A stretch of 64,000 nucleotides of DNA from Chloroflexota bacterium (GCA_043754535.1 JAYUUN010000071.1:24115-88114), one strand, 5' to 3'. Shown: positions 13,721 to 31,592, counted from the stretch's first letter. A program made the numbers and translations. Notes: a model not told the origin generated them from the letters alone.

Positions 13721-13771
13721 ACAGACCCCCGCCCAACCTCTTTCAAGGTGGAACAAGATTAGGAGATTGAC

Positions 13772-14578: not shown

Positions 14579-14646
14579 TTGGTTGAGGTTGGGGCTGGCA
14601 GGTACCAGCCCCTTGCTATCAAGTTTAGCGACAGGAGTTACCCTAA

Positions 14647-15249: not shown

Positions 15250-15303
15250 TTCGCGCAACCTCGCTGGAGGCAGTGGCGGGGAAGCTGAGGAAACGAGGCA
15301 ATC

Positions 15304-16218: not shown

Positions 16219-16305
16219 GCGTGCAACGCAACCACAAGTGAAGCCAAGCTGGGCGTGCAACAAGCGCGCCCTCTATGTGGGGCCAAAACCCCATAGCAGG
16301 GTACA

Positions 16306-17328
16306 GTGATGATCAACTTCCGTAAGCACAAGTTTACTGCTCCAAGCCTGCTGGTGGCTGGATTGGCGGTGCTGGCTCTACTGCTTAGCAGTGCCAACCT
16401 CAGCCTGGTCAATTCGGCAACCATCACCATCGAGCCAAGTATCCTCGGCAGCAACGAAAAGCTGCCAGTTAACGACCCCGACGCTGCAATATGGACGCAG
16501 GCGGGTGGCAAGGACGTGGCTGCTATCGTGGTGCCGATGAGTGCGCAGCAGATGGTGCGGCCCAGTGGTGGCAGCACGAAGGCCGTAGTCGTCCGAGCCG
16601 TCGCGAGCAGCGAACAACTGGCGATCAAGATTAGCTGGCACGACGACACGATGAACAACCAGGAGGACGGCTACCAGGCTAGCGATGCAGTGGCGGTGCA
16701 GTGGCCGATGAAGGTCGGTGAAGCCCTTCCCTTCCAGTGCATGGGTCAGCTTGATGCGCCAGTAAACATTTGGCAGTGGAAAGCTAGCCTCCAGACGACC
16801 AACGAGACCACTGGCAACGGCCAGCCCCCTGTCTACAACTTGATGAGCAATGGTATTTGCAAGGCTGCCGATGCAGCAGGCATGATCCCCCAGGGTCATG
16901 GTGTGTGGGGCAAGTTCAAGGATGAGACTGGCGCAGAGCAGACGGGTTGGAGCGTTGTCTTCAGCCGCAAGTTCAGCACGGGCGACGCTAATTCTGCCGC
17001 TATCGAACCAGGCCACAGCACCAACGTCGCCTTCGCAGTCTGGAACGGCGCACCAGGGGTGTTCGAGCAGAAAAGCCGCAAGGCAGTAGCTAGCTGGGTG
17101 CAGTTCAACGTGGTGGCTGGGACGAAGGTTGACCTGACCTGGCTTAACCTGATCCTGATCCTCGGCGCAAGCGTGGTACTGATCGGCCTCGCCTTGAAGC
17201 TGACCCCGCGCACGATCAGCGCACAAGCGGTAGTGGCTAGTCCCCAAGTTGACACAGAGGGAAGGCCCGCCGCTGATACCCCGGCCAACCGCGCCCTCAA
17301 GTTGACAGCGAGATCGCGGCGGATGTAG
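16306..17328 (+). CDS. Secreted, C-terminally TM-anchored protein resembling the EB_dh / cytochrome c-552-DMSO-reductase-like (DOMON-type) heme-b-binding domain
   Basis: 340 aa with a signal peptide. The motif order ...LAIKISWHDDT...DAVAVQWP...FQCMGQ...VNIWQWKAS...VAFAVWNGA...QKSRKAVASW... matches my recollection of the EB_dh family. A C-terminal TM helix (LNLILILGASVVLIGLALKL) follows. No CxxCH site is present. Confidence 0.45.
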   Translation: MMINFRKHKFTAPSLLVAGLAVLALLLSSANLSLVNSATITIEPSILGSNEKLPVNDPDAAIWTQAGGKDVAAIVVPMSAQQMVRPSGGSTKAVVVRAVASSEQLAIKISWHDDTMNNQEDGYQASDAVAVQWPMKVGEALPFQCMGQLDAPVNIWQWKASLQTTNETTGNGQPPVYNLMSNGICKAADAAGMIPQGHGVWGKFKDETGAEQTGWSVVFSRKFSTGDANSAAIEPGHSTNVAFAVWNGAPGVFEQKSRKAVASWVQFNVVAGTKVDLTWLNLILILGASVVLIGLALKLTPRTISAQAVVASPQVDTEGRPAADTPANRALKLTARSRRM

Positions 17329-17433: not shown

Positions 17434-18870
17434 ATGGACAAAGAGTACAGTGCAGCCCGAAACTTTGTAGTAACCGGGGCATTCTGGGTGATCATCGGCG
17501 GCCTGGTGGGGCTGGTCGCCGCCACGGAGATGGTCAGCCCCGACTTCCTCGGTGGCATCCCCTTCTTCGTCTTTGGTCGCCTGCGCCCGCTGCACGTCAA
17601 CGTGATGTTCTTCCTCTGGGTCAGCAGTATCTACTTTGGGGCGTTCCTCTACATTGTGCCAAAACTCTGCGGCACCAAGCTATACAGCGAGAAGCTGGGC
17701 AATGTTGCAATGGTGCTGTGGAACTTCGTCGGCATCTTCGCCCTCTTTACCCTGCTTACCGGCTACACCCAGGGCCGCGAGTATGCTGAACTGATCTGGC
17801 CGATTGACATTCTGGTAGAAGTCGTCCTGCTGATGAACCTCTATAATATTGTGCGTACCATCCTCGCTCGCAAAGAGAAGAAGCTGTTCGTCTCCCTCTG
17901 GTACATCACAGGTGCTATGCTCTGGCTGCCAATCGTCTACGCCATCGGCAACGTGATCTGGGATCCGTTCACCAGTTGGATCAGTACTGGCACCTTCAAC
18001 GGCAATCTGCTGCTCGGCTTCCCCGGCGGCAGCCTTGACGGCATTCGCGACTCGATCTGGAACTGGTACTACGGCCACAACGTTCTTGGCCTCTGGTTCA
18101 CCCCTGGTGGCGTTGCTATGGTCTACTACTTCCTGCCAGTGATCATCCGCTCTCCACTCTACAGCCACACCCTCAGCTTGATCGGCTTCTGGGGGCTAGC
18201 CTTCTTCTACACGATGGTCGGCCACCACCACATCTTGCAAACACCTACCCCCGGCTACCTGAAGACAATTGCCACGCTCGGTAGCATCGGTCTGTTCGTG
18301 CCAGTCTTCACCTTCCTCGGCAACATCTGGATGACGATGCGTGGAAGCTGGGGTAAGATATACGAGAGCATCCCCCTCAAGTTCCTGATCGTCGGCACGG
18401 TCTGGTACTTCGTCACCTGCGTGCAGGGGCCATTCCAGGCGATCCAGGGCTTCAACCGCTTGATCCACTTCACCAACTGGATCGTAGGCCACGCCCACCT
18501 CGCTATGCTGGGGACGATGAGTAGTTGGGCGATGGGGGCGGTGCTATACATGGTGCCAGTAATCAGCCGTAAACGGCTCTGGTCACCCGCTTTGGCCGAA
18601 GCGCAGTTCTGGCTAGTGACGATGGGCTTCATCCTGATGATGATCACCTTGCAGGTCGGTGGCCTCGTGCAGGGTGGTATGTGGATGGCAGGCCAGACGG
18701 TCTACGCAGGCGTGCCACAAATGCGCCCCTACTACATTGGGCGGGCAATCAGCGGTATCCTGCTCTTTGCAGGCTTCTCCCTCCAATTTTACAACATCTA
18801 CAAGACGATTCGTTCCAGCGAACCGATCCGCGCCAGCAGCGCAATCTCGGCGGCTGATGTACCAGCTTAG
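17434..18870 (+). CDS. ccoN: C-family (cbb3-type) heme-copper oxidase catalytic subunit CcoN
   Basis: 478 aa, 12 or more TM helices. Helix II carries RPLHVNVMFF. Also WYYGHNVLGLWF (CuB His), FFYTMVGHHHI (Tyr plus HH pair) and NWIVGHAHLAMLG (heme b3/b His pair). Confidence 0.9.
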   Translation: MDKEYSAARNFVVTGAFWVIIGGLVGLVAATEMVSPDFLGGIPFFVFGRLRPLHVNVMFFLWVSSIYFGAFLYIVPKLCGTKLYSEKLGNVAMVLWNFVGIFALFTLLTGYTQGREYAELIWPIDILVEVVLLMNLYNIVRTILARKEKKLFVSLWYITGAMLWLPIVYAIGNVIWDPFTSWISTGTFNGNLLLGFPGGSLDGIRDSIWNWYYGHNVLGLWFTPGGVAMVYYFLPVIIRSPLYSHTLSLIGFWGLAFFYTMVGHHHILQTPTPGYLKTIATLGSIGLFVPVFTFLGNIWMTMRGSWGKIYESIPLKFLIVGTVWYFVTCVQGPFQAIQGFNRLIHFTNWIVGHAHLAMLGTMSSWAMGAVLYMVPVISRKRLWSPALAEAQFWLVTMGFILMMITLQVGGLVQGGMWMAGQTVYAGVPQMRPYYIGRAISGILLFAGFSLQFYNIYKTIRSSEPIRASSAISAADVPA

Positions 18871-19057: not shown

Positions 19058-20518
19058 ATGGCACAGATTACCGACAACATCAAGAAGGGCTTTCGCGAGG
19101 CGGCCACGGGACTGAAGGCGCGACGCTTTGTGCTGCGGATGGACTACCCCACCATCTTCTTTGGCGCACTGCTGATCGTCCTCAGCGTGACTGCGGTTGT
19201 GGTCGCCCTGCCCTTCTTTACCTACAAGGTCGAACCCTCGCCTGATGCCCGCCCGCTCAGTGTAGCGGAGGAGCATGGTCGGGCGATCTACGCTAGCAAC
19301 GGTTGCTGGTACTGCCACAGCCAGTATCTTCGCCCCCAGGACTGGACAGGGGTTAAGTCATTCGAGACCCTGGGCCGCGTGGCCCAAGCGGGTGACTTCG
19401 CTTACCAGAAGGGGATGCTGCTCGGCTCGGAGCGCACCGGCCCCGACCTGTCGCAGGAGGGTGGCGCGCACCCCGACGACTGGCACGTAGCCCACTTCTA
19501 CAACCCACGCTACACCAGCGTCAAGTCGATCATGCCAGAGTTTAGCTTCTGGAGCGATGAGGAACGCAACGACACGATCAGCTACGTGCAGAGCCTGGGC
19601 GGCAAGCCAGGGGTAGCCCGTTCGCAGAAGCAGCGCGAAGTCAAGTCAGCCACCCTACAAACACGTGGCTTGCCCAGTGACGACCCGAAAGACCCGTTCA
19701 AGAACCGTCGCTTGCAGGTACAGGCTATGTTCGATGACAGTTGGGCTAACGTGACCAACCCGATCCCGACCAGCCCGCGCAGCTTGCAGCATGGCAAATA
19801 CGTCTTCCAGACCAATTGCATCGGCTGCCATGGGGTCTACGCCGACGGCAAGGGGCCAGCAGCTCGCTATGTTCAGCCGCAGCCCTTCAACTTCACCCAG
19901 GCTAACCAGCAGGCGTGGCTCTCCGACGGCCAGATGTACCTCGCGCTGCTCTACGGCGTAGAAGGCACCTCCATGCCAGCCTGGGGCGACTTCCTTACCG
20001 TCAATGATATTTGGGACACGGTCAACTTCCTGCGTACTGTCCCTTATGGCAGCCTGACCGCTGGACGCGAGCCGACGATTGAGATGTTCCAGCGGAGCGA
20101 AGAACTGGTGCGCGCCAACCCACAAGACCCCTCCAAGAACCCCTACCGCACCCAGTTCAACATCGTAAACAAGGGCAGCTACTACAACCCACAGAATATC
20201 GGGCCGAAGTTCAACCCATCTGGCCCCAGCACTGGCGTAGAAGACCCCAGCACTGGCGGTCAGCAGCAGCGTCCCGACGTGGGTAACTACCCAATCCAAA
20301 ACTCGATCTACCCACCACCCTATCAGGTTGGCACCAGCGGGGTTGTCACCCCGGTCTCCTCCTCAGTTGGCAATGGTTCAACTGGCCCCGCAGACAACGG
20401 TGGTTCAATGCCGCCTAGCAGCGGTGGCAACAACGGCAACGGTGGAGCAGGCAGCACTGGCACTGGCGGCACCAGCGGAGGCAGCGGCACTGGCAGCACT
20501 AGCGGCGGCAGCAAGTAG
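19058..20518 (+). CDS. ccoO: Fusion of CcoO (monoheme cbb3 subunit II) with a CcoP-like monoheme cytochrome c domain and a Gly/Ser/Asn-rich tail
   Basis: TM anchor. CcoO motifs IYASNGCWYCHSQYLRP, LLGSERTGPDLSQEG, DDWHVAHFYNPR..SIMPEF. A second heme site CIGCHGVYADGKGP...GTSMPAWGD follows. The last roughly 90 aa are low complexity (GGNNGNGGAGSTGTGGTSGGSGTGSTSGGSK). Confidence 0.85.
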   Translation: MAQITDNIKKGFREAATGLKARRFVLRMDYPTIFFGALLIVLSVTAVVVALPFFTYKVEPSPDARPLSVAEEHGRAIYASNGCWYCHSQYLRPQDWTGVKSFETLGRVAQAGDFAYQKGMLLGSERTGPDLSQEGGAHPDDWHVAHFYNPRYTSVKSIMPEFSFWSDEERNDTISYVQSLGGKPGVARSQKQREVKSATLQTRGLPSDDPKDPFKNRRLQVQAMFDDSWANVTNPIPTSPRSLQHGKYVFQTNCIGCHGVYADGKGPAARYVQPQPFNFTQANQQAWLSDGQMYLALLYGVEGTSMPAWGDFLTVNDIWDTVNFLRTVPYGSLTAGREPTIEMFQRSEELVRANPQDPSKNPYRTQFNIVNKGSYYNPQNIGPKFNPSGPSTGVEDPSTGGQQQRPDVGNYPIQNSIYPPPYQVGTSGVVTPVSSSVGNGSTGPADNGGSMPPSSGGNNGNGGAGSTGTGGTSGGSGTGSTSGGSK

Positions 20519-20593: not shown

Positions 20594-20869
20594 GTGATGA
20601 AACGAATGAGGCGCACTACTCTTGCGCTGGCAAGCAGCCTGCTTATAGCGGCAATGGCTAGCCCCGCCTACGCCCACGACGCAGTAGCGGGTGAGGAGTT
20701 GTCGGGGGCAATGGAGATGCTCTACTTCACCCTCTTTCTGGTTGCCAGCACTGCCTTTGTCATCTTCTACGCCTGGCGTAAGGGGCAGTTCAGCAACTTT
20801 GAGGAGAGCAAGTACCGGATGCTTGAGCAGGACGGTGAAGAATACAAAGAGTTGATGGGAGAATACTGA
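20594..20869 (+). CDS. ccoS: CcoS/FixS-like cbb3 maturation protein with an N-terminal signal-peptide-like extension
   Basis: MEMLYFTLFLVASTAFVIFYAWRKGQFSNFEESKYRMLEQD resembles the CcoS consensus (...FlWA.ksGQfdD......iL.dD). The upstream 39 codons read like a Sec signal (MKRMRRTTLALASSLLIAAMASPAYA/HD). An alternative start at the ATG at 20711 (Shine-Dalgarno GGTGAGGAG) would give a canonical 52-aa CcoS. Confidence 0.6.
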   Translation: MMKRMRRTTLALASSLLIAAMASPAYAHDAVAGEELSGAMEMLYFTLFLVASTAFVIFYAWRKGQFSNFEESKYRMLEQDGEEYKELMGEY

Positions 20870-21192
20870 TGGACCCAAACGAGACTATCAACCGCACTGG
20901 TGGCAATCTTCCCTGGGATAACATTCTCCCCTGGGAGTGGCAGTGGCACCTGGACGCTATCGAGTGGATATGGGGCATTGCAATCGCCGTGCTGATTTGG
21001 TTCACCATTTCGGCGATGAAGTACCGCAAGCAGGCAGCCAACCAGCTTGGCCGCAATGTGGAGGACTTCGCAGGCCAGACCACTGAGGCGAACGGCAAGA
21101 TGCCAGTCTTCCTGATGCTCACCTACGCTGCTGTCACTCTTTTCTTCTTCACCTACACCCTGATCTACTTCTTCTTCGGCTACACGTATTAG
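20869..21192 (+). CDS. Two-TM small membrane protein; second helix resembles the FixP_N / CcoQ-type anchor of cbb3 oxidases
   Basis: 107 aa. Its start overlaps the upstream stop (TGATG). ...ANGKMPVFLMLTYAAVTLFFFTYTLIYFFFGY resembles the DN.LP.WW...fy.ti.fa..Y pattern. Confidence 0.4.
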   Translation: MDPNETINRTGGNLPWDNILPWEWQWHLDAIEWIWGIAIAVLIWFTISAMKYRKQAANQLGRNVEDFAGQTTEANGKMPVFLMLTYAAVTLFFFTYTLIYFFFGYTY

Positions 21193-21223: not shown

Positions 21224-21652
21224 ATGATGAGCGAACCAACCCCGCGCCAACAAAACCGCTTGCAGGATGTAAAGTCCGAGCGCAACGCTGCTGCCTTTGG
21301 TGAGGAGAACTCTGCCGAGCCGCTCTATGGCCTTGCTCCAATCGAGGGTGGCGCAGACGAGACGGTGGAGGAGAGTTCAGCGGAGACCCCAAATAGCCCT
21401 GACTTCCTGGAGGCACGCACGCGCACCGAGGCAGCAGCGGGTGGTAGTGCTGGCGGGGGGATCGGCGGCAAGTCTCAGGCTGCGCTCCCGGCTGGTGGTC
21501 ATGGGCATGGTACTGGCAGCTTCAACCTGCTAACTGTGATCCTGATGAGCATGGCGGGGCTGATCATCACCGTCGGCATCGTCCTCTATATCGCGCACGG
21601 CGGCCACGACCAGGTGCAAGACATCCTTAGCCGTTACCCCGCCAACCGCTAA
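21224..21652 (+). CDS. Hypothetical C-terminally anchored membrane protein with acidic disordered N-terminus and a GGHGHG motif
   Basis: 142 aa with a single TM helix (FNLLTVILMSMAGLIITVGIVLYIA). Co-directional with the cbb3 genes. Confidence 0.45.
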   Translation: MMSEPTPRQQNRLQDVKSERNAAAFGEENSAEPLYGLAPIEGGADETVEESSAETPNSPDFLEARTRTEAAAGGSAGGGIGGKSQAALPAGGHGHGTGSFNLLTVILMSMAGLIITVGIVLYIAHGGHDQVQDILSRYPANR

Positions 21653-21719: not shown

Positions 21720-22034
21720 ATGGCCTTTGTGCGTATGACCACCTTCATCGTCCCTGCGGCCCGCAGTGAGGAGATTCAGCCGGGCCACAACCTCTACCTG
21801 GCGGCCACGCAGGGGGTTAAGATTGTGGCTCAGAACACCAGTGGCTTCCATCGGGGGGGTGTCTGGGCTAGCCAGACCGAGAAGGGTGACATCAAGGTAG
21901 TAATCTATATGCAGTTCTACGACCTGCCCGATTTGCAGAACTTCGCCAATGCACCGATGGTGCGCGACTTCGAGGCGAGCGTTGACGAAATCCTCAGCCC
22001 GCCCCTGATTGAGGTTTTCGAGGTCGTCTCCTGA
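21720..22034 (+). CDS. Small ABM/Dabb-like (ferredoxin-fold) protein
   Basis: 104 aa. Its size and alternating beta-alpha pattern (VRMTTFIV...IKVVIYMQFYDLPDLQNFANAP...) are consistent with the antibiotic-biosynthesis-monooxygenase fold. The call is weak. Confidence 0.4.
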   Translation: MAFVRMTTFIVPAARSEEIQPGHNLYLAATQGVKIVAQNTSGFHRGGVWASQTEKGDIKVVIYMQFYDLPDLQNFANAPMVRDFEASVDEILSPPLIEVFEVVS

Positions 22035-22063: not shown

Positions 22064-22699
22064 ATGTTGCAAGAAAAAGAGGACGCGCAGCAGAACCTCA
22101 CGCCCCAGCAGCCGGAACCCAAGTACGGCGAACTGCCTCCGATCATGCGCCGCCTGCGCCCGCTGATCTACCTGCTGATCGTCCTCGGCACCATAGCAAT
22201 TAGTACAATCAGCGTCTATCAACTCTACTTCCTGCGTACTGCTGGCGATTCCTCATCAGCAATGGCGGTAGGCAGCGATAGCGCAAACCGCAACGTCCCC
22301 GACCGACGCGGGATGTTCATCACCACCGGTAAGGGCTTCTACCAGATTCTTGACCTGACCAGTGATGTGGTCAACCAGTTCCAGAACCAGGTACCAGCCG
22401 ACGCTGCTCGCTTCCTGCTGGGTGACGCAACCTGGGTCACGGTCAACGGTTCCATGGACTTCGAGGCAGGAGAAGCGCACGTCTACTTGCTCAAGCCAGA
22501 AAGCAACGGGCAGCAGGCGATCTCGCTCCAGTTCGAGAAGGTGCAGCGCAAGAGCGACAAAGCGGTGCGCTTCATGGCAGCTAGCGGTGCCTGGGCCGAG
22601 GGTGCTTACCGCGTAGAGGTGCCAGCCGACTCCATGTATGGCGGCAAAGCCTACGCCTACTTTATCGTTGGTTATCCCGACCTCAACCTGGGCAAGTAG
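22064..22699 (+). CDS. Hypothetical N-terminally anchored extracytoplasmic protein
   Basis: 211 aa. One TM helix (LIYLLIVLGTIAISTISVYQLYF), then a beta-rich soluble domain. I recognise no motifs. Confidence 0.45.
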   Translation: MLQEKEDAQQNLTPQQPEPKYGELPPIMRRLRPLIYLLIVLGTIAISTISVYQLYFLRTAGDSSSAMAVGSDSANRNVPDRRGMFITTGKGFYQILDLTSDVVNQFQNQVPADAARFLLGDATWVTVNGSMDFEAGEAHVYLLKPESNGQQAISLQFEKVQRKSDKAVRFMAASGAWAEGAYRVEVPADSMYGGKAYAYFIVGYPDLNLGK

Positions 22700-22747: not shown

Positions 22748-22777
22748 TTGCAGCCCTCTAACAGTAATGGCTATAAT
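22748..22777 (+). promoter_or_regulatory. Putative promoter TTGCAG-18-TATAAT for the triplicated HCO-like gene
   Basis: aaTTGCAGccctctaacagtaatggcTATAATtgt, about 55 nt upstream of the ATG at 22831. An AT-rich stretch lies just upstream. Confidence 0.5.
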
Positions 22778-22830: not shown

Positions 22831-25026
22831 ATGGAGAACAATTTGAAGGCGGTGGCAGTGCCAGCGATGGCAGTGAAGGCCGACCCACTGGTTAAGTCGC
22901 TACTGAGTGAGGGGCAAGTGGCCGAGGAGATGAAGGGGCAGGAGCGCGGGTACCTGCGCTTCTTCTTCGCGGCGGCGGTTGCACTGCTGTTCAGTGCAAC
23001 CCAGGGCATCCTGATGCGTGTGCCAGGCTTCTTTGACTGGATTCGCCATGCCGACTACGGTGGTCGAATGGTCTCGATCCTCTCCTTCACCCACATCACA
23101 GTGGTGGCGGCTGGCACGATCAGCATGACTGCCCTGATTTACTACGTGCTGCCCCGCGTGATGGGCCGCCCGCTCTTTGGCCGCGGCATCAGCAACCTGG
23201 GGTTCTGGTGTATCCTCTTTGGCGTGTACGGCTTCTACTTCAGCATGATCGGCATGGGGCTGTGGGAAGGGAGCCTGGTAGTCTCACAGGGCTACACCTA
23301 CGATGCTGCTCGCCAGATGCTAGACGGCTGGCACCGGGGACTGGTTGGTGCCTGCGCCAGCTTCATGGGTATTGGCTACTGGATCATGGTACTCAATGTC
23401 CTCGTCACCTACTTTCAGGGGCGCAAGCAGCGACGGTTGCGCCAGCAGCTTGCCCTCGCCAGTGGGCTAGACTCACCAGAGCTTGACCAGGTCATCACGA
23501 CTGCTGCGCCACTCAAGCAGCGGCTGCTCAACTTGATCGGCTGGAACGAGGTGGGCAAGGCCAACGACTACTACATCGCCAAGTTCTTTGCGGTCGCTGC
23601 TATTGGCTTGTTCATCGGCACCGTGCAGGGGGTCTACCAGGTGTTGCCCTGGTCTACCGAGTGGCTACGCAAGGCTGGTACCGCTGGGCAGCAGATCGAC
23701 CCCACCGCCCACGCCCACATCAACCTGGTCAGCGTTGCGCTAGCGGTGATGGGCTTCAGCTACTACTTCCTGCCACGCATCTTCAATCGGCCCATCGCCA
23801 GCGTCAAGCTCGCCAATTTCAGCTTCCGGGCGGCCAGCTTTGGCATGATTAGCTTCTGGCTCTGGCTGGTTGTTTTCGGCTTCATCGAAGGCGACAAGGT
23901 GGTGCGCTTCGGCTGGACTCCTGACGCAGCCCGTGCCAATGACACGATCTGGCGCAACATTGCGATCATCGGCTCAGCCTGCTTCATGGCAGCAGGCTTC
24001 TGGACCTACATCTCCAACATCTACCTGACGCTCAACAACAAGCGGCGGCTGACCGAGGATCAGCAGGCGACCATGCAGCCCGCCAGCAGCTTCCCGATCA
24101 AGGCACCCTGGCTGGCTAGCGTCGTAGGCATCTCCGCCACCTTCCTGCTGTTCGGCACCATCCAGGGCATCATCCAGGCTCTACCCTACACTCAAAAGTG
24201 GTTGCAGACTTCGGGCGACGCTGGCTACTTCGTCACCCCCTTCGCCCACGCCCAGCTAAACACCACTGGCGGGGTAGTCCTCAGCCTGATGGTCTTCATA
24301 ATGTTCCTCGCCCCGCGCCTCAGTGGCCGCCCACTCAACACTGGGCTGGCGAAAGTGGCGGTGGCCGTCCTCTGCCTCGGCATCGTCAGCGTCTATGCCG
24401 TCAATCTCCTACTTGGCGTAGCAGAGGGTGATTTGATGCGCCAGGGCAGCAGCTTTGAACAGGCGCGCCAGTTGTGGCTCGGCCCCACCCTTAACGACAC
24501 GCTGCTGCTCACCTCGACCACGATCCAGGGCGTAGGCTACCTGCTATTCTTTGTGGTGATCATGCAGGCGATTGGCTGGCTGGCAATCCGCAACTACTTC
24601 GGCCAGCGGTTCGGCGGGCTGGGCCGTGCTGTGCTAGATGGAGCGAAGGTTCACCCCCGCGCCTTGCCCAAGAGCATGGCCGCTGCCCGTAGCCGCGCCC
24701 TGACCGGCACTATGCTAGAAGTAGTACCTGGCATGGGCTGGCTGATGACTGGGCGGCCCAAGCTAGCGACCTTCTTGCTCCTGTTCGGCTTTGGGGTGCT
24801 GCTCTCCACCGTCTTCGCGGTGCTGGCGATCTTCAACATCACCGAGGAGAACTACGTGATCTGGTGGCTGGTCGGCATCTACACCGCAGTCGCGCTGCTC
24901 TCTGCCTTCTTCCAGTATCGCAGCTACATGGCCCAGGCGCGGGCGCACCTCAGCAGCCTGTCCGCCCCCACTCGCGCGCTCGCCCAGGGGGTTGCTGAGC
25001 AAATTGCTACCCGCAAACAACTGTAG
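22831..25026 (+). CDS. 14-TM membrane protein made of three tandem 4-helix modules, each resembling helices I-IV of heme-copper oxidase subunit I, plus 2 C-terminal helices; function unknown
   Basis: 731 aa. The three modules cover aa ~40-197, ~246-402 and ~425-590. They share the motif order ...QG(I/V)..., H-x-(N/T) helix, (F/V)L(A)PR(V/I/L)xxRP(L/I), ...EG(S/D)..., (D/E)(A/Q)AR. This parallels RPLHVNVMFF...YIVPKLCGTKLYSEKLGN in the neighbouring CcoN. No CuB HH pair is present. Confidence 0.6.
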   Translation: MENNLKAVAVPAMAVKADPLVKSLLSEGQVAEEMKGQERGYLRFFFAAAVALLFSATQGILMRVPGFFDWIRHADYGGRMVSILSFTHITVVAAGTISMTALIYYVLPRVMGRPLFGRGISNLGFWCILFGVYGFYFSMIGMGLWEGSLVVSQGYTYDAARQMLDGWHRGLVGACASFMGIGYWIMVLNVLVTYFQGRKQRRLRQQLALASGLDSPELDQVITTAAPLKQRLLNLIGWNEVGKANDYYIAKFFAVAAIGLFIGTVQGVYQVLPWSTEWLRKAGTAGQQIDPTAHAHINLVSVALAVMGFSYYFLPRIFNRPIASVKLANFSFRAASFGMISFWLWLVVFGFIEGDKVVRFGWTPDAARANDTIWRNIAIIGSACFMAAGFWTYISNIYLTLNNKRRLTEDQQATMQPASSFPIKAPWLASVVGISATFLLFGTIQGIIQALPYTQKWLQTSGDAGYFVTPFAHAQLNTTGGVVLSLMVFIMFLAPRLSGRPLNTGLAKVAVAVLCLGIVSVYAVNLLLGVAEGDLMRQGSSFEQARQLWLGPTLNDTLLLTSTTIQGVGYLLFFVVIMQAIGWLAIRNYFGQRFGGLGRAVLDGAKVHPRALPKSMAAARSRALTGTMLEVVPGMGWLMTGRPKLATFLLLFGFGVLLSTVFAVLAIFNITEENYVIWWLVGIYTAVALLSAFFQYRSYMAQARAHLSSLSAPTRALAQGVAEQIATRKQL

Positions 25027-25101: not shown

Positions 25102-26616
25102 ATGATAGAGTTGGTGGCGAAGCAGCGGGTTGACCAGCGGGCGGTTGTTTGCTGGCTATATGGCGGCTTGAGCCTCACCCTCTACCTGGCAATCACCCTA
25201 CGCTACCCACTCTGGCGATACATTACCCAGCCCCTGCTAGATGTGGGCAAGGTCGAGCGGTACGACAAGACGGCAGGGTTCACCCTGGTAGCAGCCTGGG
25301 CTGTCCTGTTCCTCATCTACCTGCGCGTGCTGTTCCTCGCGCCAGCGGGTAAGGTGGGCAGCGGCCTGCGTGACGCGCTGGTGCTGCTGCCCCTCATGTT
25401 CTTCCTCGTGCAGCTTGGCAGCCACTACATCCTCGCCAACGACATCACCGATTACATCATGCGCGGGCGGATCAGCAGCGTCTACGGCCAGAACCCCTTC
25501 GCCGTCCTACCTACTGTCTTCAAGGACGACCCCTTCTTCCCCTTCACCAACCCGCAATCCTACACCGCCACCAGCTACTACGGCCCAGTCTGGGAAGCAG
25601 TCGCGGCGGCGGTGACAAAGCTGGCCGGTAATGGGCTGCTAGCGAACTACCTGGCCTTCAAGTTGCTGGCCGTCGCTGCTTACCTCGGCAACGGCTGGCT
25701 GCTCTATCTACTACTCCGTCGCGAGCAGCCACAGTGGGTCTGGCGCGGTCTCACCTTCTACCTTTGGAACCCACTAGCCGTCTTCGAGGTGGCCGCCAAC
25801 GCGCACAACGACCCGCTGATGATCACCCCAGTGCTGCTGGCTCTGCTAGTGGTCAGCCGCGGGCGCGAACGCTGGCGTGGGCCGCTGGCTTCCTTCTGGC
25901 TGGCGGTCGGTACCCTGGTCAAGTTCCTGCCGCTGCTGCTGCTCCCTCTCTTTTGGCTAGACGGCCTGCGCGACCGGGCTGCCAGCCCGCTGCGCCGCGC
26001 CCAGGTTCTCTACCTCAGCGTGGTGGTGGCAGCCAGTTCCCTCCTGCTAGCCTACTTGCCAGTCTGGCACGGGCCACAGACGCTCTGGCTGGAGAAAAGG
26101 GCAGAGATATACACGGTATCGCTCCCCACCGCCCTCAAGTCCTGGTTCGAGCAAGGCGGGATGCAGTGGCGCGATGCAGCGCACCTGGTCAGCGGCATCG
26201 CCACCTTGCTGCTCGCTCTCTGGCTCGGCTACCAAATGCTCCGCCTCTGGCGCGGCAGCACGACACTGGTGGGAGCTTGCTTTGAAGTATTCTTCTTCTA
26301 CCTGCTGTTCTGTTGCCTCTGGTTCCAGCCCTGGTATCTCCTCTGGCTGATCACCCTCGGCGCACTGTTGCCCGGCTGGTGGGTTGTTGCCCGCGTGGTC
26401 GCCTTCTGCGCCTTGAGCATGAGCATCTACGCCGTGTGGTGGCTGCAAATCTTCTTTGTGCGCCCCAACCAGTATACCTACATGGATGCAGAGTGGCTGT
26501 CGATCTGGCTACTCTACCCCTTGCCGCTGCTCCTCTGGTTTGGCTGGCTGCTGCACGAGCATTGGCCGGGCAAGCAGCGGACGGCTGGGCTTGTCGTTGA
26601 AGGAGATACTGGGTGA
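25102..26616 (+). CDS. Polytopic GT-C-fold membrane glycosyltransferase (DUF2029/GT87-like)
   Basis: 504 aa, about 12 TM helices. Features typical of polyprenyl-phosphate-sugar-dependent mannosyltransferase-like proteins (...WNPLAVFEVAANAHNDPLMI...). GGTAGGAG Shine-Dalgarno. Confidence 0.55.
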   Translation: MIELVAKQRVDQRAVVCWLYGGLSLTLYLAITLRYPLWRYITQPLLDVGKVERYDKTAGFTLVAAWAVLFLIYLRVLFLAPAGKVGSGLRDALVLLPLMFFLVQLGSHYILANDITDYIMRGRISSVYGQNPFAVLPTVFKDDPFFPFTNPQSYTATSYYGPVWEAVAAAVTKLAGNGLLANYLAFKLLAVAAYLGNGWLLYLLLRREQPQWVWRGLTFYLWNPLAVFEVAANAHNDPLMITPVLLALLVVSRGRERWRGPLASFWLAVGTLVKFLPLLLLPLFWLDGLRDRAASPLRRAQVLYLSVVVAASSLLLAYLPVWHGPQTLWLEKRAEIYTVSLPTALKSWFEQGGMQWRDAAHLVSGIATLLLALWLGYQMLRLWRGSTTLVGACFEVFFFYLLFCCLWFQPWYLLWLITLGALLPGWWVVARVVAFCALSMSIYAVWWLQIFFVRPNQYTYMDAEWLSIWLLYPLPLLLWFGWLLHEHWPGKQRTAGLVVEGDTG

Positions 26617-26629
26617 GCGGGCGTAGCTT

Positions 26630-27757
26630 TTACTGCTCTGTCTCTTGTGCGCCGTTGTGGGTCTGGTTAGCCTTCGCCTTGCGCCGCTGTTGCAGCTTGC
26701 TGAGGCTGGCAGTGTGGGCGCGTACTACCGCGCCGATCTCCACATCCTCGCGCTGCTGGGCGGCCTGGTAGTCGGGGCCAGCGGTGCGGCGACGGCGCAA
26801 TACCAATGGAGCAACGGCGGCCACGTCGCTGCTGCTCACCTCTGTGCGCTCGTCCAGGGCGGCATAGGCACGGGCTGCCTCGAACAGCACGATCTCAGTG
26901 CGGTGCGACTCGATGCCTAGCTGCTGGATCACCGCTATCGCTGCCGCCCCTGCCGCGGCCCCCACCTTCACCTGCGCCAGCCTGGAGCGGGCCTGGGTGA
27001 TCGCCGCCTGTACCAGCGCGGTCTGCCCCGCATAGCTGGCGCGGAAGCCCTCCGGGTTGTCCTGGTAGGCACTGAAGCGGCGGTAAACTTCTAGCCGCTC
27101 CTCTACCGTGGCAACCGGGTTGACGTAGACGCGCAGACCTATGCGATCCAGCAGTTGTGGGCGCAGATCGCCCTCCTCTGGGTTCATCGAGCTGACCAGG
27201 GTGAACCGCGAGGGGTAGCTACCAACCACCAGCCCACGCCGCACCACCGTGTAGCCGGTCGCGGCTGCGTCTATGATCGCGTTTAGCACATCACTGCCCA
27301 GCAGGTTTATCTCGTCAATGTAGAGGATGTTGTTGTTGGCATAACTGAGGATGCCTGGTTCAAAGCGCAGGCGGCGTTGCTCGACCTCCAGACGGCGGTT
27401 CGCCCCACCTACTACGTCCTCCACCCCAACATTGAGCGGCAGTTCGACCAATCGCTGCTGCATATCGGTGGCGATCTCCTCGCCCTGGGCCAGGCGGTCG
27501 CGGCAGGAGGCACAGACCAGTTCGGGAGCGGTCAGCAGGTATTCGGGGCGGCAGCCGAGGCCGTTGGCGCAGGTACTAACGTTGACCGTTGGCAGAATCT
27601 CGACCAGGCCACGCACTGCGCTCGTCTTACCCGTCCCCTTCGCGCCCAACAGCAGCACGCCCTGCACTCGCGGGTTGACCGCCGCCAGGATCAGCGCGTC
27701 TTTCATTTCCTCTTGCCCAACCACGGCAACAAACGGATAGCGGCTCTCCTGTAGCAT
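26630..27757 (-). CDS. ChlI/BchI-family AAA+ ATPase (Mg-chelatase subunit I-like), orphan, with a 4-Cys insertion
   Basis: YPFVAVVGQEEMKDALILAAVNPRVQGVLLLGAKGTGKTSAVRGL, YIDEINLL and NPEEGDLRPQLLDRIGL match BchI/ChlI. An insertion reads STCANGLGCRPEYLLTAPELVCASCRD. No ChlD/ChlH or vWA partner is present in the window. Confidence 0.8.
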   Translation of the reverse strand: MLQESRYPFVAVVGQEEMKDALILAAVNPRVQGVLLLGAKGTGKTSAVRGLVEILPTVNVSTCANGLGCRPEYLLTAPELVCASCRDRLAQGEEIATDMQQRLVELPLNVGVEDVVGGANRRLEVEQRRLRFEPGILSYANNNILYIDEINLLGSDVLNAIIDAAATGYTVVRRGLVVGSYPSRFTLVSSMNPEEGDLRPQLLDRIGLRVYVNPVATVEERLEVYRRFSAYQDNPEGFRASYAGQTALVQAAITQARSRLAQVKVGAAAGAAAIAVIQQLGIESHRTEIVLFEAARAYAALDERTEVSSSDVAAVAPLVLRRRRTAGPDYQAAQQREDVEIGAVVRAHTASLSKLQQRRKAKANQTHNGAQETEQ

Positions 27758-27784
27758 CCAACCCTCCTCGCTTCAGTATAGCAT

Positions 27785-27793
27785 ATTGGGCTT
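27785..27793 (-). promoter_or_regulatory. Putative extended -10 promoter (TGcTATACT) for the ChlI-like gene
   Basis: The reverse complement reads aataTGcTATACTgaagcGAGGAGGgttggATG. The leader is very short. Confidence 0.4.
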
Positions 27794-27850
27794 GACTTTG
27801 CCTCCCTGCTGTGATAAGCTACCGCCAGCTTTAGCCGTGTAGATAGGAGC

Positions 27851-28645
27851 ATGATCGGTTTGGTCAACGAAGAACGCCCGCGCCTCAGCGTGGTCATCCC
27901 CATGTACAATGAAGAACTACGCATCAGCAGTAGCCTGCACCGCCTGACCGAGTACCTCAGAGGGCAGCATTACAGCTACGAAGTGCTGTTGGTGGATGAC
28001 GGCAGCAGCGACCGCAGCATTGAGGTGGCGAAACAGGAACTGGGTGAGGTGCCAAGCCTACGCGTGCTTGCTAGCGACCGCAACTACGGCAAGGGCCACG
28101 CCGTTCGGGTAGGGATGCTCAGCGCGAAGGGTGACTACATCCTCTTTACCGACGCTGACCTCTCCACCCCGATTGAGGAGTTGGACAAGTTCTGGCCCTG
28201 GCTAGAGCAGGACTACGACGCGGTGATCGGTTCACGCAAGATGAAGGGGGCCGAGATCGTCCGCCACCAACCCTGGCTACGCGAGAACATGGGCAAAGTC
28301 TTTACCTGGCTGACCAACCGTTTGATCACCCGCAACCTGACTGACCTCACCTGTGGCTTCAAGAGCTTCAGCCGGGCTGCCGCCCAGGACATCTTCAGCC
28401 GCCAGACGCTCAACGACTGGAGCTTTGATGCTGAAGTGCTGTTCATTGCCCAACGACGCGGCCTAAGGATCAAGGAAGTTCCTGTGCGCTGGCACGACGA
28501 GCGTGGCACAAAGGTGCGCCTGCTGCGCGATGTTGCCCGCTCGCTACAAGGACTGTACAAGATCAGGGCGAACAACCTGCGCGGGCTGTATGGCCGCAAT
28601 GTGCGCCCCAATCCTCAGCCTGCCCAACCAGAGCGCAAGGACTGA
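27851..28645 (+). CDS. GT2-family polyprenyl/dolichyl-phosphate glycosyltransferase (Ppm1/DPM/DPG-synthase-like)
   Basis: LSVVIPMYNEELRI...YEVLLVDDGSSDRS...ILFTDADLSTP...DLTCGFK. This is the GT-A DxD architecture typical of polyprenol-phosphate sugar synthases. Confidence 0.8.
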   Translation: MIGLVNEERPRLSVVIPMYNEELRISSSLHRLTEYLRGQHYSYEVLLVDDGSSDRSIEVAKQELGEVPSLRVLASDRNYGKGHAVRVGMLSAKGDYILFTDADLSTPIEELDKFWPWLEQDYDAVIGSRKMKGAEIVRHQPWLRENMGKVFTWLTNRLITRNLTDLTCGFKSFSRAAAQDIFSRQTLNDWSFDAEVLFIAQRRGLRIKEVPVRWHDERGTKVRLLRDVARSLQGLYKIRANNLRGLYGRNVRPNPQPAQPERKD

Positions 28646-28665
28646 CTCGCCGCTGGCGAACTAGC

Positions 28666-28698
28666 AAGCCCCTCCAATTCGTTGATGGAGGGGCTTTT
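28666..28698 (+). terminator. Intrinsic terminator after the GT2 gene
   Basis: 11-bp stem aagcccctcca / tggaggggctt followed by TTTTGG. Confidence 0.7.
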
Positions 28699-28849
28699 GG
28701 CTACTAGCGGCCCGCAAGATGCAGCCGCTTCGCCTACCTTCACGCAGCCACTACTGCCTGACAACCGTGAAGACTTACGCCTACCACTTCCCCAGCCCCG
28801 CCCCCCTGACCGTAGGCGGAGAATTGGTACGCACAAGCCAGCAAGTTGG

Positions 28850-28879
28850 TTCCAAAACTGCCAGATGTTGGCATATAAT
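28850..28879 (+). promoter_or_regulatory. Putative promoter TTCCAA-18-TATAAT for the GlsB/YeaQ-like gene, giving a roughly 120-nt CA-rich leader
   Basis: gTTCCAAaactgccagatgttggcaTATAATttg. The -35 element is weak. Confidence 0.35.
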
Positions 28880-29002
28880 TTGCATAACAAATATGGCGAG
28901 CGCAAGTTATATCTGGTGCAAGCGGCAAGGAAGACGGCAACGTGGGGAAAGCCGCAAACGTAAGCGAAGTAACAAAACAAACACACAACAAGGAGGCTTA
29001 AG

Positions 29003-29293
29003 ATGTTGGAAGTTTTCGCTATCAACTACGGGGTGGGTCTCATCGGCTGGATCATCGCTGGTGCGGTTGGCGGTTGGCTGGCCGGTCAGGTCCGCAAGGG
29101 CGGCAGCTACGGCCTGATTGGCAATGTCGTGGTCGGCATCATTGGCGCACTGCTGCTCGGCGTTCTCCTCAACGCTCTCAACCTCTTCAAGGATGAGAAC
29201 ACGGGCTTGATCGGCACTATCGCTGCTGCCTTCGTTGGCGCGCTGTTGCTGACGACCATCGTCAACGCGATAACGGGCCAGCGCAAGGTCTAG
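29003..29293 (+). CDS. GlsB/YeaQ/YmgE-family (transglycosylase-associated) small stress membrane protein
   Basis: 96 aa. GLIGWIIAGAVGGWLAGQV...GLIGNVVVGIIGALLLGVLL is the family's Gly-zipper pattern. AAGGAGG Shine-Dalgarno. Confidence 0.8.
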   Translation: MLEVFAINYGVGLIGWIIAGAVGGWLAGQVRKGGSYGLIGNVVVGIIGALLLGVLLNALNLFKDENTGLIGTIAAAFVGALLLTTIVNAITGQRKV

Positions 29294-29384
29294 CCTCATC
29301 GCTGGAGCAAGCACAATGCAGGTAGCCGCCTCCTTTTGGGGGCGGCTCTTTACTTGCCCGCTGACAATATGGTATGATCGGCGC

Positions 29385-31523
29385 ATGATCGAGCCAGTGG
29401 ATGGGCAAGCCGAGGTTAGCATCGTGGTGGTAAGCTGGAACGTGGCAGCCCTGCTGCGCCGCTGCCTCACTAGTTGCTACGCGCAAGCAGTGGCGGTCGA
29501 AGTGGTAGTGGTGGACAACGCCAGTGCGGATGGCAGCCCCACGCTCGTCAGCCACGAGTTCCCGCAGGCAATGCTGATCGCCAACCGCGACAACCGCGGC
29601 TTTCCAGCAGCAGTAAACCAGGGGATCGCCGCCACTACTGCCCCCTACGTCTTGATCCTCAACCCCGATGCGGCATTGCAGCCTGGTAGCCTCGCCCTGC
29701 TACTTGCCCACTTGCGGGCCAACCCACAGCTAGGCATGGTCGGCCCACGCCTGCGCTACCCCAACGGCACGGCTCAGAGTTCCCGCCGCCGCTTCCCTAC
29801 CTTCACCACGCTGCTGATCGAGAGTACCCCCCTGCAACCGCTATTTGCCCGCTCTGGCCTGCTACGCCACTTCTACTGCGCTGACCAGGCCGACGAGGTG
29901 GCGCAGGAGGTGGACTGGCTGACCGGCGCGTGTCTGCTGCTGCGCCGCGAGGCTATCCAACAGGTAGGAGGTCTGGACGAGGGCTTCTTTATGTACAGTG
30001 AGGAGGTAGACTGGGCGCGGCGGCTGAAGCAGGCAGGCTGGGCGGTTGCCTACCTGCCCACCGCTGAGGTAGTACACGCCGAGGGCCAGAGTAGCGGGCA
30101 GGCAACAGCTCGCCGCCAGATCAACTTCAACGTTAGCAAGGTGCGCTATGTCGCCAAGTGGCAGGGGGTTAGCCGCGCTCGCTGGCTGCGCCGCTGGTTG
30201 CTGCTGCTCGAAAGTGAACAGACCGCGCTTGAGGCGGCCAAGTGGCTGCTAGGCCACAAGCGACTGCTGCGCGCTGCCAGACTGCGGGCGGGACTGCAAG
30301 TGCTGGCGAACGGCTACCGCCACTACCTGCGGCCAGCGGCCAGCCCCAACCTCGCCCTACTCAGCGCAGAGTACCCGCCGCAACCGGGGGGAGTGGGCGA
30401 CTACACCCGCAAGCTGGCGGGCGAGTTGGCCGTCCCGGTGATTACCGCTGGCGCAGGTGGCAGGCTGGTCGTCAGGCAGCCACTTGGGCTAGAACCAGCA
30501 GATAGAGCGGCTGGCGCACCGCTCGCGGCTGCCTACGGCTGGGGGATGTTGGGCCAGGTGCATCGCCTACTGCTGCGCGAAAAAATCGACGCACTCAACA
30601 TCGAGTACCAGACCGGGGCGTATGCGATGCACCCAGCCATTAACCTGCTGCCCCTCTACCTCAAGCTGCGCGGCAATCCTGCCCGCACGGTGACGACCTT
30701 CCATGACCTGCTGCCTCCCTACCTGTTCCCCAAAGCGGGGCGGTTGCGATGGCTGGCGAACTGGCTGTTGCTCAAGTTCAGCGACGCAGCTATCGTCACT
30801 AACGCGCAGGACGTGGCGCAGGTGGGCGGCTGGGGGGCGAAGGTGCGCGTTATTCCCATTGGCAGCAACATTGCAGCCCGTAGGGTGACGGCTGACGAGC
30901 GCAGGGGCTGGCGGCTAGCACACAGGATAGCTGAGGGGGACACGTTGCTGGTCTATTTTGGCCTGCTCAACCAGAGCAAGGGGCTAGATACTATCCTACA
31001 CGCCCTGGCGCAGCTACCAGCTAGCTATCGGCTGGCAATAGTTGGGGGGGGGATTGGCGAGAGCGACGCGACCAATCGCCCCTTCGCTCGTTACATTGAG
31101 GAGCAGAGCAAGCGGTTGCAGCTTGATCAGCGTATAATGCGGAGCGGGCCGTTGCCAGAAGCAGCGGTCAGCGAGTGGCTACAAGCGGGCGACCTAGCTG
31201 CCCTCCCCTTCCGCGACGGCGCGAGTCTGCGGCGTGGTAGCCTACTAGCCTGCCTGGCGCACGGCCTGCCCACCGTCAGTACCCACCCCAATCCTCTCCC
31301 ACAAGGAGGGATGGAGGGGCTGCCAGAGTTGGTTGACGGTGAGAACGTGCTGCTGGTGGAGGCGGACGATGCCGCAGGGTTGGCGGCAGCGATCCAGCGG
31401 CTGGCGGGCGACGGTATACTGAGGGCAAAGCTGGCAGCGGGTGGGCGGCGGTTGGTCGCCAGCCTCGGCTGGGAGCATATCGCGGCCCAGGTGCGCGAAG
31501 TGATGCAAAGGTTAGCTACCTGA
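29385..31523 (+). CDS. Bifunctional glycosyltransferase: N-terminal GT2 (rhamnosyltransferase-like) fused to a C-terminal GT4/GT1-type domain
   Basis: N-terminal half: VSIVVVSWNVAALLRRCL...VVVVDNASADGS...NRGFPAAVNQG...FFMYSEEVDWARR. C-terminal half: ...LLVYFGLLNQSKGLD...LAIVGGG...PFRDGASLRRGSLLACLAHGLPTVST...ENVLLVE (GT-B EX7E-like region). The ATG at 29385 is preferred over 29316. Confidence 0.75.
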   Translation: MIEPVDGQAEVSIVVVSWNVAALLRRCLTSCYAQAVAVEVVVVDNASADGSPTLVSHEFPQAMLIANRDNRGFPAAVNQGIAATTAPYVLILNPDAALQPGSLALLLAHLRANPQLGMVGPRLRYPNGTAQSSRRRFPTFTTLLIESTPLQPLFARSGLLRHFYCADQADEVAQEVDWLTGACLLLRREAIQQVGGLDEGFFMYSEEVDWARRLKQAGWAVAYLPTAEVVHAEGQSSGQATARRQINFNVSKVRYVAKWQGVSRARWLRRWLLLLESEQTALEAAKWLLGHKRLLRAARLRAGLQVLANGYRHYLRPAASPNLALLSAEYPPQPGGVGDYTRKLAGELAVPVITAGAGGRLVVRQPLGLEPADRAAGAPLAAAYGWGMLGQVHRLLLREKIDALNIEYQTGAYAMHPAINLLPLYLKLRGNPARTVTTFHDLLPPYLFPKAGRLRWLANWLLLKFSDAAIVTNAQDVAQVGGWGAKVRVIPIGSNIAARRVTADERRGWRLAHRIAEGDTLLVYFGLLNQSKGLDTILHALAQLPASYRLAIVGGGIGESDATNRPFARYIEEQSKRLQLDQRIMRSGPLPEAAVSEWLQAGDLAALPFRDGASLRRGSLLACLAHGLPTVSTHPNPLPQGGMEGLPELVDGENVLLVEADDAAGLAAAIQRLAGDGILRAKLAAGGRRLVASLGWEHIAAQVREVMQRLAT

Positions 31524-31592
31524 ATGGGTTCAGGTGGTCGGAGGTTCAAATTGGCTGATCGGCTGAACAGTGTTGTGGTGCAGGAGAGTGGC

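Follow-up and report, generated by a model that had tools for sequence, protein, structure and literature searches.

A protein of three tandem oxidase-like modules

We analysed a 64,000-nucleotide stretch of the genome of a Chloroflexota bacterium (GCA_043754535.1, JAYUUN010000071.1:24115-88114; hereafter the window, to whose full length all coordinates refer) and, within it, the protein encoded at 22831-25026 on the plus strand, which we call X. The open reading frame (ORF) is real, and its translation of 731 amino acids is exactly as described in an original prediction made from the sequence alone. X consists of three tandem copies of the four-helix module of haem-copper oxidase (HCO) subunit I and has the HCO fold without the ligands of CuB. 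Limits of the three repeats were taken from the envelopes of hidden Markov models (HMMs), and the parts of the gene are as follows.

22831-25026, plus strand: X, ORF of 731 amino acids (ORF list and translation, Pfam COX1, AlphaFold2, Foldseek)
22915-23445, plus strand: module 1, amino acids 29-205, four transmembrane (TM) helices (HMM envelope, conservation, helices)
23536-24057, plus strand: module 2, amino acids 236-409, the best conserved of the three (HMM envelope, conservation)
24073-24636, plus strand: module 3, amino acids 415-602 (HMM envelope, conservation)
24676-25026, plus strand: C-terminal extension with the motif E630-x3-G634-x-G636-W637, followed by two additional TM helices and a long helix at the C-terminus (conservation, AlphaFold2 helices)

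The internal homology claimed for three segments of about 160 amino acids was borne out by BLASTP, by shuffling and by profile-profile comparison. When X was cut at the boundaries first proposed, BLASTP aligned modules 1 and 2 at 30% identity over 157 amino acids (E-value (E) 1.5e-27), modules 2 and 3 at 33% (E 6e-20) and modules 1 and 3 at 25% (E 7e-15). Because membrane proteins have composition in common, each pair was also scored against 500 composition-preserving shuffles, giving Smith-Waterman z-scores of 34.7 (modules 1 and 2), 27.7 (2 and 3) and 17.1 (1 and 3), with the observed score reached by none of the 500 shuffles. Chance repetition and compositional bias are ruled out by these values (z of at least 17). 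Profiles built from the family gave E of 4e-51, 2e-43 and 2e-38 for the same pairs, and all three repeats are present in 105 of 106 homologues, the remaining one being a truncated protein with two. The repeat motifs that had been listed (TxQG, THIT/AHAHINL/AHAQLNT, LPR..RP, EG and AAR) are all there and line up in a three-way alignment. The four TM helices expected per segment appear in the AlphaFold2 model as four long helices in each repeat, and the two helices expected at about amino acids 645-697 are placed at 643-667 and 675-730. Residues E630, G634, G636 and W637 of the C-terminal extension are invariant in the 55 diverse homologues from which conservation was determined, and their motif is also kept in actinobacterial forms of 1070 amino acids. 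The X protein has no CxxCH motif.

The predicted structure places X among the HCOs. A model of X calculated from a 55-sequence family alignment has a mean predicted local distance difference test (pLDDT) score of 87 and a predicted template modelling (pTM) score of 0.86, and it reproduces the 12-helix pseudo-threefold core of subunit I, a symmetry that is textbook knowledge (PMC3604715). The 50 best Foldseek matches in the PDB are exclusively HCO subunit I or NorB chains, among them the cbb3 oxidase 3mk7_A (E 3e-6) and NorB 4xyd_A (TM-score 0.77, the highest found, normalised to NorB). A transporter or any other fold can be set aside, as these 50 matches are all to members of the HCO superfamily. 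At the level of families, X scores 56.8 bits against Pfam COX1 (PF00115; cut-off 34.8) in three stretches, and each repeat also matches by itself at 27.6-35.2 bits, modules 1 and 2 on profile positions of about 5-148 and module 3 on 306-411. The view that X cannot be placed in a described family therefore does not hold: it passes the COX1 threshold, and homologues that have been given a public name are called either 'cbb3-type cytochrome c oxidase subunit I' or 'hypothetical'.

More specific models do not capture X. It fails TIGR00780, the curated equivalog model of ccoN, whose cut-off is 583 bits (the homologue P0075 scores 46), and no NCBIfam model matched X at E up to 0.01. NnrS (PF05940) matched neither X at E up to 0.01 nor the single repeats at E up to 10, and no domain of unknown function in Pfam matched the whole protein or its repeats. 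In a search of all PDB sequences with the family profile, the oxidase matches were C-family CcoN chains only (9g6b_A, E 3e-11; 3mk7_A, E 1e-8), with no match to an A- or B-family oxidase or a nitric oxide reductase (NOR); three further entries with E above 0.6 are unrelated proteins. The single X sequence found no match in the PDB, so that CcoN is reached by the family profile only, which hhalign aligns with CcoN in several registers at a probability of up to 99.1%.

The modules had been described as helix I-IV modules. We cut the three four-helix arcs of subunit I (arc 1, helices I-IV; arc 2, V-VIII; arc 3, IX-XII) from the aligned sequences of seven genuine CcoN proteins encoded at related loci, and arc 3 was the best match of every repeat, with profile E of 9e-15, 5.5e-15 and 2.4e-8 for modules 1, 2 and 3, against 1.6e-6, 1.6e-7 and 7.6e-4 for arc 1; arc 2 was also weaker than arc 3. 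By profile E the likeness is thus far better to helices IX-XII. The CcoN arcs barely detect one another (arcs 1 and 3, E 2e-8; arcs 2 and 3, 1e-6; arcs 1 and 2, 3e-4), whereas those of X are 25-33% identical. An HMM built from the three repeats of X alone matches all three arcs in every CcoN tested, and these matches run through a motif shared by both proteins, Y-x-x-P-x6-L-[YW]-S, which in CcoN comes after the second helix of each arc (II, VI and X).

Conserved histidines and predicted ligands

The intramembrane polar residues that never vary among the 55 homologues are H88 in module 1; H294, H296, N298 and E353 in module 2; and H473, Q475 and N477 in module 3. Their positions can be compared with those of CcoN as ungapped distances from the conserved Pro (P) in the LPR motif.

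23092-23094, plus strand: codon of H88, P-20 of module 1, invariant (55/55)
23710-23718, plus strand: codons of H294-A295-H296 (HxH), module 2, both His invariant
24247-24255, plus strand: codons of H473-A474-Q475, module 3, all three residues invariant
CcoN helix II: His at P-22, none at P-20
CcoN helix VI: no His at P-22, His at P-20 (CuB ligand)
CcoN helix X: His at P-22 and at P-20
X module 1: P-22 variable, H88 at P-20
X module 2: H294 at P-22, H296 at P-20
X module 3: H473 at P-22, Q475 at P-20

Gln475 and the His two residues before it are thus as originally noted. The HxH of module 2 aligns with the helix-X HxH of CcoN. H88 and H296 had been proposed to line up with the axial His of helix II; in the ungapped register they instead occupy P-20, the position of the helix-VI CuB ligand and of the second helix-X His, while the helix-II His of CcoN sits at P-22, and the original assignment is retained for H88 only where hhalign introduces a two-residue gap. 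Module 2 also carries the invariant pair E353-G354. The Glu of this EG motif, conserved as E146 in 43 and as E532 in 49 of the 55 homologues, falls about where the helix-VII His-His pair lies in arc alignments.

The absence of a CuB signature, for which X had been judged not to be a conventional catalytic subunit, is confirmed: there is no HH dipeptide anywhere in the protein, no YGHN block and no Y..GHHH. HCO subunit I has six ligand His (one each in helices II and VI, two in VII and two in X); X has four, differently arranged, and a two-helix C-terminal extension besides. CcoN (3MK7, 9G6B), which shares with X the 12-helix pseudo-threefold fold and the operon, has the helix-VII HH pair, the YGHN block and CuB, all three of which X lacks; the CuB site as CcoN builds it, from the helix-VI His, the helix-VII HH pair and a cross-linked Tyr, is not present in X. 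NorB (4XYD, 3O0R) is, like X, a copper-free member of the superfamily and gives the best superposition of the model. It nevertheless keeps the three His and one Glu of its FeB site as well as both HCO haem sites, whereas X has no HH pair, matches it in fold only and finds no sequence match to it with the family profile. A conventional oxidase or NOR is ruled out by these missing ligands, and because the helix-VII pair for CuB or FeB is gone, X cannot reduce O2 or NO as known HCOs and NORs do.

All four His lie about 12 residues into helices that start on the outer (P) side, and the loops after helix 2 are Arg-rich; they are therefore placed at the depth of the haems in true oxidases. Other conserved polar residues stand at the same level in each module, namely Q/H in helix 1, E at the end of helix 3 and W-H at the start of helix 4. 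In known HCOs, each cofactor sector combines the P-22 residue of one arc with the P-20 residue of the preceding arc, so that helices II and X hold haem a, and helices X and VI hold haem a3/CuB. Applied to X, this rule would therefore yield two complete His pairs, H294 with H88 and H473 with H296, and a third site composed of a variable residue and the invariant Gln475. The variable residue, at P-22 of module 1 (F86 in the window, codon 23086-23088), is His in 16 of the 55 homologues, making an HxH; others have Leu, Gln or Asn there, and the predicted partner of this residue, Gln475, is the same in all of them. In HCO subunit I, one sector contains haem a, one contains haem a3/CuB and one is cofactor-free (PMC3604715).

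The same residues might instead form a new copper-free active site, in which a His-ligated haem faces a His and a Glu (H88 or H296 with E146 or E353) and acts on NO, peroxide or another reactive species with electrons from CcoO. H88 and H296 do stand at the helix-VI CuB ligand position in the ungapped register, and E353, E146 and E532 about at the helix-VII HH position. NORs have a Glu in the FeB site (PMC11214002), HCO homologues outside the canonical families have been tied to denitrification and NO detoxification (Pei et al. 2014, as given in PMC11218638), and some X loci carry a second FixO gene. One His and one Glu, however, would make a much poorer ligand set than any non-haem metal site known in the superfamily, genes for denitrification were not seen in the X neighbourhoods read, and the strict coupling to a complete oxidase described below suggests a shared rather than an independent function. 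We consider such an enzyme distinctly unlikely.

The cbb3 gene cluster and the distribution of the family

X had been described as lying beside a cbb3 operon. Among 80 genome loci scanned, 50 had at least 5.5 kb of sequence upstream of X, and in all 50 ccoN and ccoO lie upstream on the same strand, so that a survey of homologue neighbourhoods confirms the expected co-occurrence with ccoN and places X inside the cluster, as its last gene. The order was the same in all seven loci that were chosen for diversity and checked by hand: ccoN, ccoO with its c-type domain, four to six small genes, and X. Within the window the cluster reads as follows.

12968-17328, plus strand: split cytochrome b (b6-like and PetD-like), Rieske protein, dihaem cytochrome c and membrane-anchored EB_dh (haem-binding) protein, directly upstream of ccoN
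17434-18870, plus strand: genuine ccoN, cbb3 subunit I with the full ligand set (COX1 282 bits, TIGR00780 match)
19058-20518, plus strand: ccoO fused to a second cytochrome c domain, CxxCH at amino acids 83 and 254
20711-20869, plus strand: FixQ-like protein of 52 amino acids with a single TM helix (clustering across loci)
20869-21192, plus strand: c2, conserved protein of about 105 amino acids with two TM helices and no family match (58 of 61 loci, both phyla)
21224-21652, plus strand: protein of 142 amino acids with a single TM helix and a low-complexity N-terminus, not conserved in the other loci compared
21720-22034, plus strand: c4, soluble protein of 104 amino acids, weakly Dabb/ABM-like (ferredoxin-like barrel), in Chloroflexota loci only
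22064-22699, plus strand: p211, 211 amino acids, N-terminal TM helix and beta-sandwich (AlphaFold2 model)
22748-22777, plus strand: promoter-like element TTGCAG-18 nt-TATAAT, within the 131-nt intergenic stretch that precedes X (sequence)

The CcoN of the window is genuine, as had been claimed: every catalytic ligand is present, it has YGHN and Y..GHHH, and it matches PDB 9g6b_A and 3mk7_A at E of about 1e-71 to 1e-73 with the HN, HHH and HAH motifs aligned. Together with the cbb3 genes, the genes at 12968-17328 suggest one long bc-cbb3 respiratory gene cluster. A promoter of its own had been proposed for X, and the promoter-like sequence is indeed found at 22748-22777; its -35 element, however, matches the consensus at three of six bases, and a consensus scan makes no call there. 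In several other loci (e.g. L013, L021 and L014) the upstream ORF comes within a few bases of the X frame, ORFs being taken from stop to stop.

Several observations concern the smaller and flanking genes. Some members of the Dabb/ABM fold family, which c4 resembles, bind or degrade haem. One sub-group of Chloroflexota, with an X of about 720-730 amino acids, has a second FixO gene and a protein of about 370 amino acids without family match upstream of ccoN, and an extra gene for about 205-220 amino acids before X (L006:245-5369 and L009:1-4660; further loci of the sub-group are L033, L038, L041, L043, L045, L050 and L080). Downstream of X in the window (25102-33863) lie a GT87/MptA-B-like membrane glycosyltransferase and several GT2, GT4 and PMT_2 genes, as well as a Mg-chelatase/cobaltochelatase-like AAA ATPase at 26630-27757 on the minus strand; neither the glycosyltransferases nor the ATPase are conserved in other loci.

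The p211 protein is homologous by BLAST to a domain that X of Actinomycetota carries fused at its C-terminal end (amino acids ~711-826 of the 1070-residue forms), which argues for a physical or functional link between the two. BLAST clustering had grouped p211 with CcoN and X, as a fourth, free module might be; this was ruled out by its match to the C-terminal extension of actinobacterial X. Its model comprises a TM helix and a ten-strand beta-sandwich. A search for homologues of p211 found two proteins only, and the model relies on the actinobacterial fusions. Among the structural matches PcoC/CopC ranks first, although its E of 1.5e-3 is not significant, and generic Ig domains come next; Pfam matched neither p211 nor c2. 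Invariant residues of p211 are mostly Gly, Tyr and Pro with a single Met (M191), and there is no conserved cluster of His, Cys or Met. Actinobacterial X itself, at about 1070 amino acids (L007:8001-11210, L008:8001-11219), consists of the 12-helix core, the E..G.GW motif, the p211-like beta-sandwich and about six further TM helices; Pfam found no match in its C-terminal half.

This arrangement raises the possibility that X is a biogenesis scaffold, which would hold haem b or copper for nascent CcoN in place of the proteobacterial CcoGHIS proteins. No ccoG-, ccoH-, ccoI- or ccoS-like gene was seen in the seven X clusters read by hand, X is the last gene of its operon, and the fused or adjoining p211 domain is a TM-anchored beta-sandwich, an architecture that we take to be reminiscent of CcoH, with PcoC/CopC as its best, weak matches. 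Relatives of X that consist of a single module, described below, adjoin a FixG/CcoG-like ferredoxin and an FGE-sulfatase-domain protein, whose family includes copper enzymes. Yet p211 has no conserved metal-binding cluster, its match to CopC falls short of significance and heads a list that continues with generic Ig folds, and a 14-helix protein with a full HCO fold and dozens of invariant residues would be an unusually elaborate chaperone; we know of no HCO assembly factor that has the HCO fold. A scaffold of this kind is an unlikely role, though one to be taken seriously.

The synteny could also reflect a purely structural role, in which X is a cofactor-less pseudo-subunit that stabilises or anchors the oxidase or a bc-cbb3 supercomplex, as CydB does beside CydA. 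The catalytic ligands of X have been lost, X is always co-encoded with CcoN, and the cluster in the window follows genes of the bc complex. Nevertheless, four His, two Asn, one Gln and one Glu in the membrane are invariant across two phyla, which is hard to explain without a cofactor or substrate, and the HxH-x-N motif is also kept in the single-module relatives. A role without any cofactor therefore strikes us as very improbable.

Homologues of X numbered 106 in a word-indexed search. When 1.84 billion cluster representatives were searched exhaustively with the profile, 758 of them matched at E up to 1e-3 and 119 at E up to 1e-30, numbers that set the X family apart from true oxidases, of which there are tens of thousands. 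With each species represented by a single genome, relatives were located in at least 585 genomes. Among the matches listed, all carriers are metagenome-assembled, uncultured Chloroflexota or Actinomycetota, belonging to Chloroflexia, Ktedonobacteria, Anaerolineales, Thermomicrobiales, Gaiellaceae, Solirubrobacteraceae and Thermoleophilaceae. The window is 97% identical over X to a metagenome-assembled genome of Chloroflexia (L011).

Single-module relatives, origin and proposed function

Matches of the exhaustive search included proteins of 160-230 amino acids, each of which covers exactly one repeat from end to end and is encoded by a complete gene inside its contig. We found 166 such single-module homologues, in Nitrospirota (including Leptospirillum ferriphilum) and Pseudomonadota, with the family as a whole spanning 160-240 amino acids. 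They conserve GTxQG, DPLAHAHINLVGG, YYLLPR..P.YS, EG and MGxGxW, with the same HxH-x-N motif as X; across the single-module proteins and the modules of X the shared elements can be written GTxQG, DPxAHAHxNLVGG, YYxLPR..RPxYS, EG and MGxGxW. The single-module profile matches modules 2, 1 and 3 of X at E of 1e-61, 7e-53 and 8e-43, module 2 being closest, and CcoN arcs 3, 1 and 2 at 8e-22, 3e-10 and 3e-8, with a probability of at least 95%. As in X, helices IX-XII of HCOs are matched best.

Single-module loci (L091:2298-4626, L094:2429-4730 and L095:10001-10510) encode proteins of 169-196 amino acids, each with HxH. Clusters of the Leptospirillum/Nitrospirota type (L091 and L094) contain two HxH paralogues with a FixO-like monohaem cytochrome c, a FixQ-like peptide, an FGE-sulfatase-domain protein with an N-terminal TM helix and a FixG/CcoG-like ferredoxin, and the L095 locus contains a single paralogue near similar genes. 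No full ccoN was present in the single-module cluster stretches read, and no third, degenerate module was found among the small ORFs of the Leptospirillum cluster. Judged by the gene content of the stretches read, which lacks a full ccoN, L091 and L094 resemble a 'split' oxidase-like system; since FixO- and FixQ-like genes adjoin the single modules in its absence, the module appears to work with CcoO-type cytochromes. The single-module proteins differ from X in being separate genes, two paralogues to a cluster, each with a full HxH, which would need to form a trimer to make the fold, and in their FGE-sulfatase-domain and FixG-like neighbours. In X, for its part, three modules are joined covalently, and modules 1 and 3 have each lost one His, leaving a full HxH in module 2 only. 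X is hence no member of the single-unit family (P0170, P0279); its three four-helix units and incomplete catalytic ligands are those of the three-unit HCO homologues.

The 160-240-residue proteins of Leptospirillum, Nitrospirota and Proteobacteria, publicly named 'cbb3-type cytochrome c oxidase subunit I', are presumably the single-unit homologues known as 'HCOH'. Pei and colleagues, in 2014, reportedly described HCO homologues of four helices only that are most similar to helices 9-12, are said to have proposed trimers for them, and are said to have included three-unit homologues such as NnrS, most with two conserved His and a predicted single haem. NnrS and other three-unit homologues resemble X in having 12 helices, three homologous units and an incomplete six-His set; X differs by its four His, where those reportedly have mostly two, and by its link to ccoNO rather than to denitrification. 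The readable triplication, which the original prediction took to be undescribed, is accordingly not new as a general idea: homologous four-helix units and single- and three-unit HCO homologues go back to Pei et al. (Protein Sci 2014, as cited in PMC4602095), and this prior publication lowers the novelty of X. The X family, its four-His pattern and its strict cbb3 linkage appear to be undescribed, and X appears to be unstudied, in that we found no account of the family, the pattern, the high similarity between modules or the obligate place within ccoNO operons in the literature, where Pei et al. 2014 was accessible through citing papers.

X most likely arose by fusion of three single-module genes before the versions of the two phyla diverged, and separately from the triplication that produced the HCOs. 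In a bootstrapped neighbour-joining tree of 70 modules with score-based distances, module 1 of both phyla formed a clade in 99% of replicates and the repeats grouped with the main (Sa-type) single modules in 93%, while any pairing of a repeat with a CcoN arc was recovered in 0-2%. The suggestion that X is a relic of the four-helix ancestor is not favoured by this result, as the repeats cluster with stand-alone modules and not one-to-one with CcoN arcs. It tells against the fusion scenario that the tree is a crude neighbour-joining one built on 170 very divergent columns.

Alternatively, X could descend from the same ancient triplication as HCO subunit I while having diverged less, either collinearly or circularly permuted by one arc, with module 1 equivalent to helices V-VIII, module 2 to IX-XII and module 3 to I-IV. 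The best whole-protein hhalign register is in fact rotated, placing X 96-425 on CcoN 223-475 (E 1.4e-18, against 7.7e-17 for the collinear one). After subtraction of row and column means from the three-by-three matrix of repeat-arc scores, the three rotated cells are positive and the three collinear ones negative, and the His pattern of X (P-20; both; P-22) is that of CcoN arcs 2, 3 and 1. Still, the repeats score 233-381 with each other and with single modules and at most 94 with any arc, every repeat prefers arc 3, and the pairings of modules 1, 2 and 3 with arcs 2, 3 and 1 received bootstrap values of 2%, 0% and 0%. The same His pattern would follow equally well if an HxH module had been triplicated and one site had then lost both of its ligands. 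We therefore regard shared ancestry of the two triplications as quite improbable.

For the function of X, the reading we favour, with a confidence that falls somewhat short of even, is that it serves the cbb3 oxidase as a non-catalytic partner subunit, free of copper and probably with two haems. X would be made together with CcoN, CcoO and several small membrane proteins. Its core of 12 helices, which comprises three fused four-helix units and is followed by the two-helix C-terminal extension, would hold two predicted bis-His b-type haems flanking helix VI, and these may take electrons from, or pass them on to, the c-type haem domains.

A number of points weigh against this partner-subunit proposal. 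The pairing of the His rests on a symmetry argument; if two non-His positions are distributed at random among six, 3 of the 15 arrangements, or about one in five, show the same tidy pattern, and gapped hhalign alignments place the helix-VI His and H88 differently. That Gln475 is invariant argues for some function of the 'empty' third site. It is not obvious what a pair of haems at equal depth in the membrane would achieve energetically, and CcoO may have its second c-type domain simply as a substitute for CcoP, not for the benefit of X. Co-transcription, finally, is no proof of a stable complex, given that assembly factors too are encoded in operons.

A bolder form of the proposal, possible but as a whole rather unlikely, is that X is a stoichiometric second HCO-fold subunit of an unstudied type of cbb3 oxidase, widespread among soil Chloroflexota and Actinomycetota, with two bis-His haems flanking helix VI, and that it stems from a second, independent fusion of three modules. 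If this were true, one haem of X would sit in the sector that is cofactor-free in all known HCOs, and the fusion would be a natural replay of the founding event of the oxidase superfamily, with the free modules still alive in Leptospirillum and other bacteria.

Whatever its exact role, X has consequences for how these bacteria are read. Given its public name, metabolic surveys of soil Chloroflexota and Actinomycetota risk counting X, which is unable to reduce oxygen, as an oxidase. The obligate extra genes of the cluster (X, c2 and the p211 domain) imply a composition or assembly of the cbb3 enzyme unlike that of proteobacterial models. More generally, free HxH modules, the fused four-His X and true oxidases with specialised arcs make up a graded series, in which the path from a four-helix haem-binding unit to the 12-helix catalytic subunit of respiration can be studied; and since single modules occur in cultivable Leptospirillum, the prediction that they form trimers and bind haem is directly testable.

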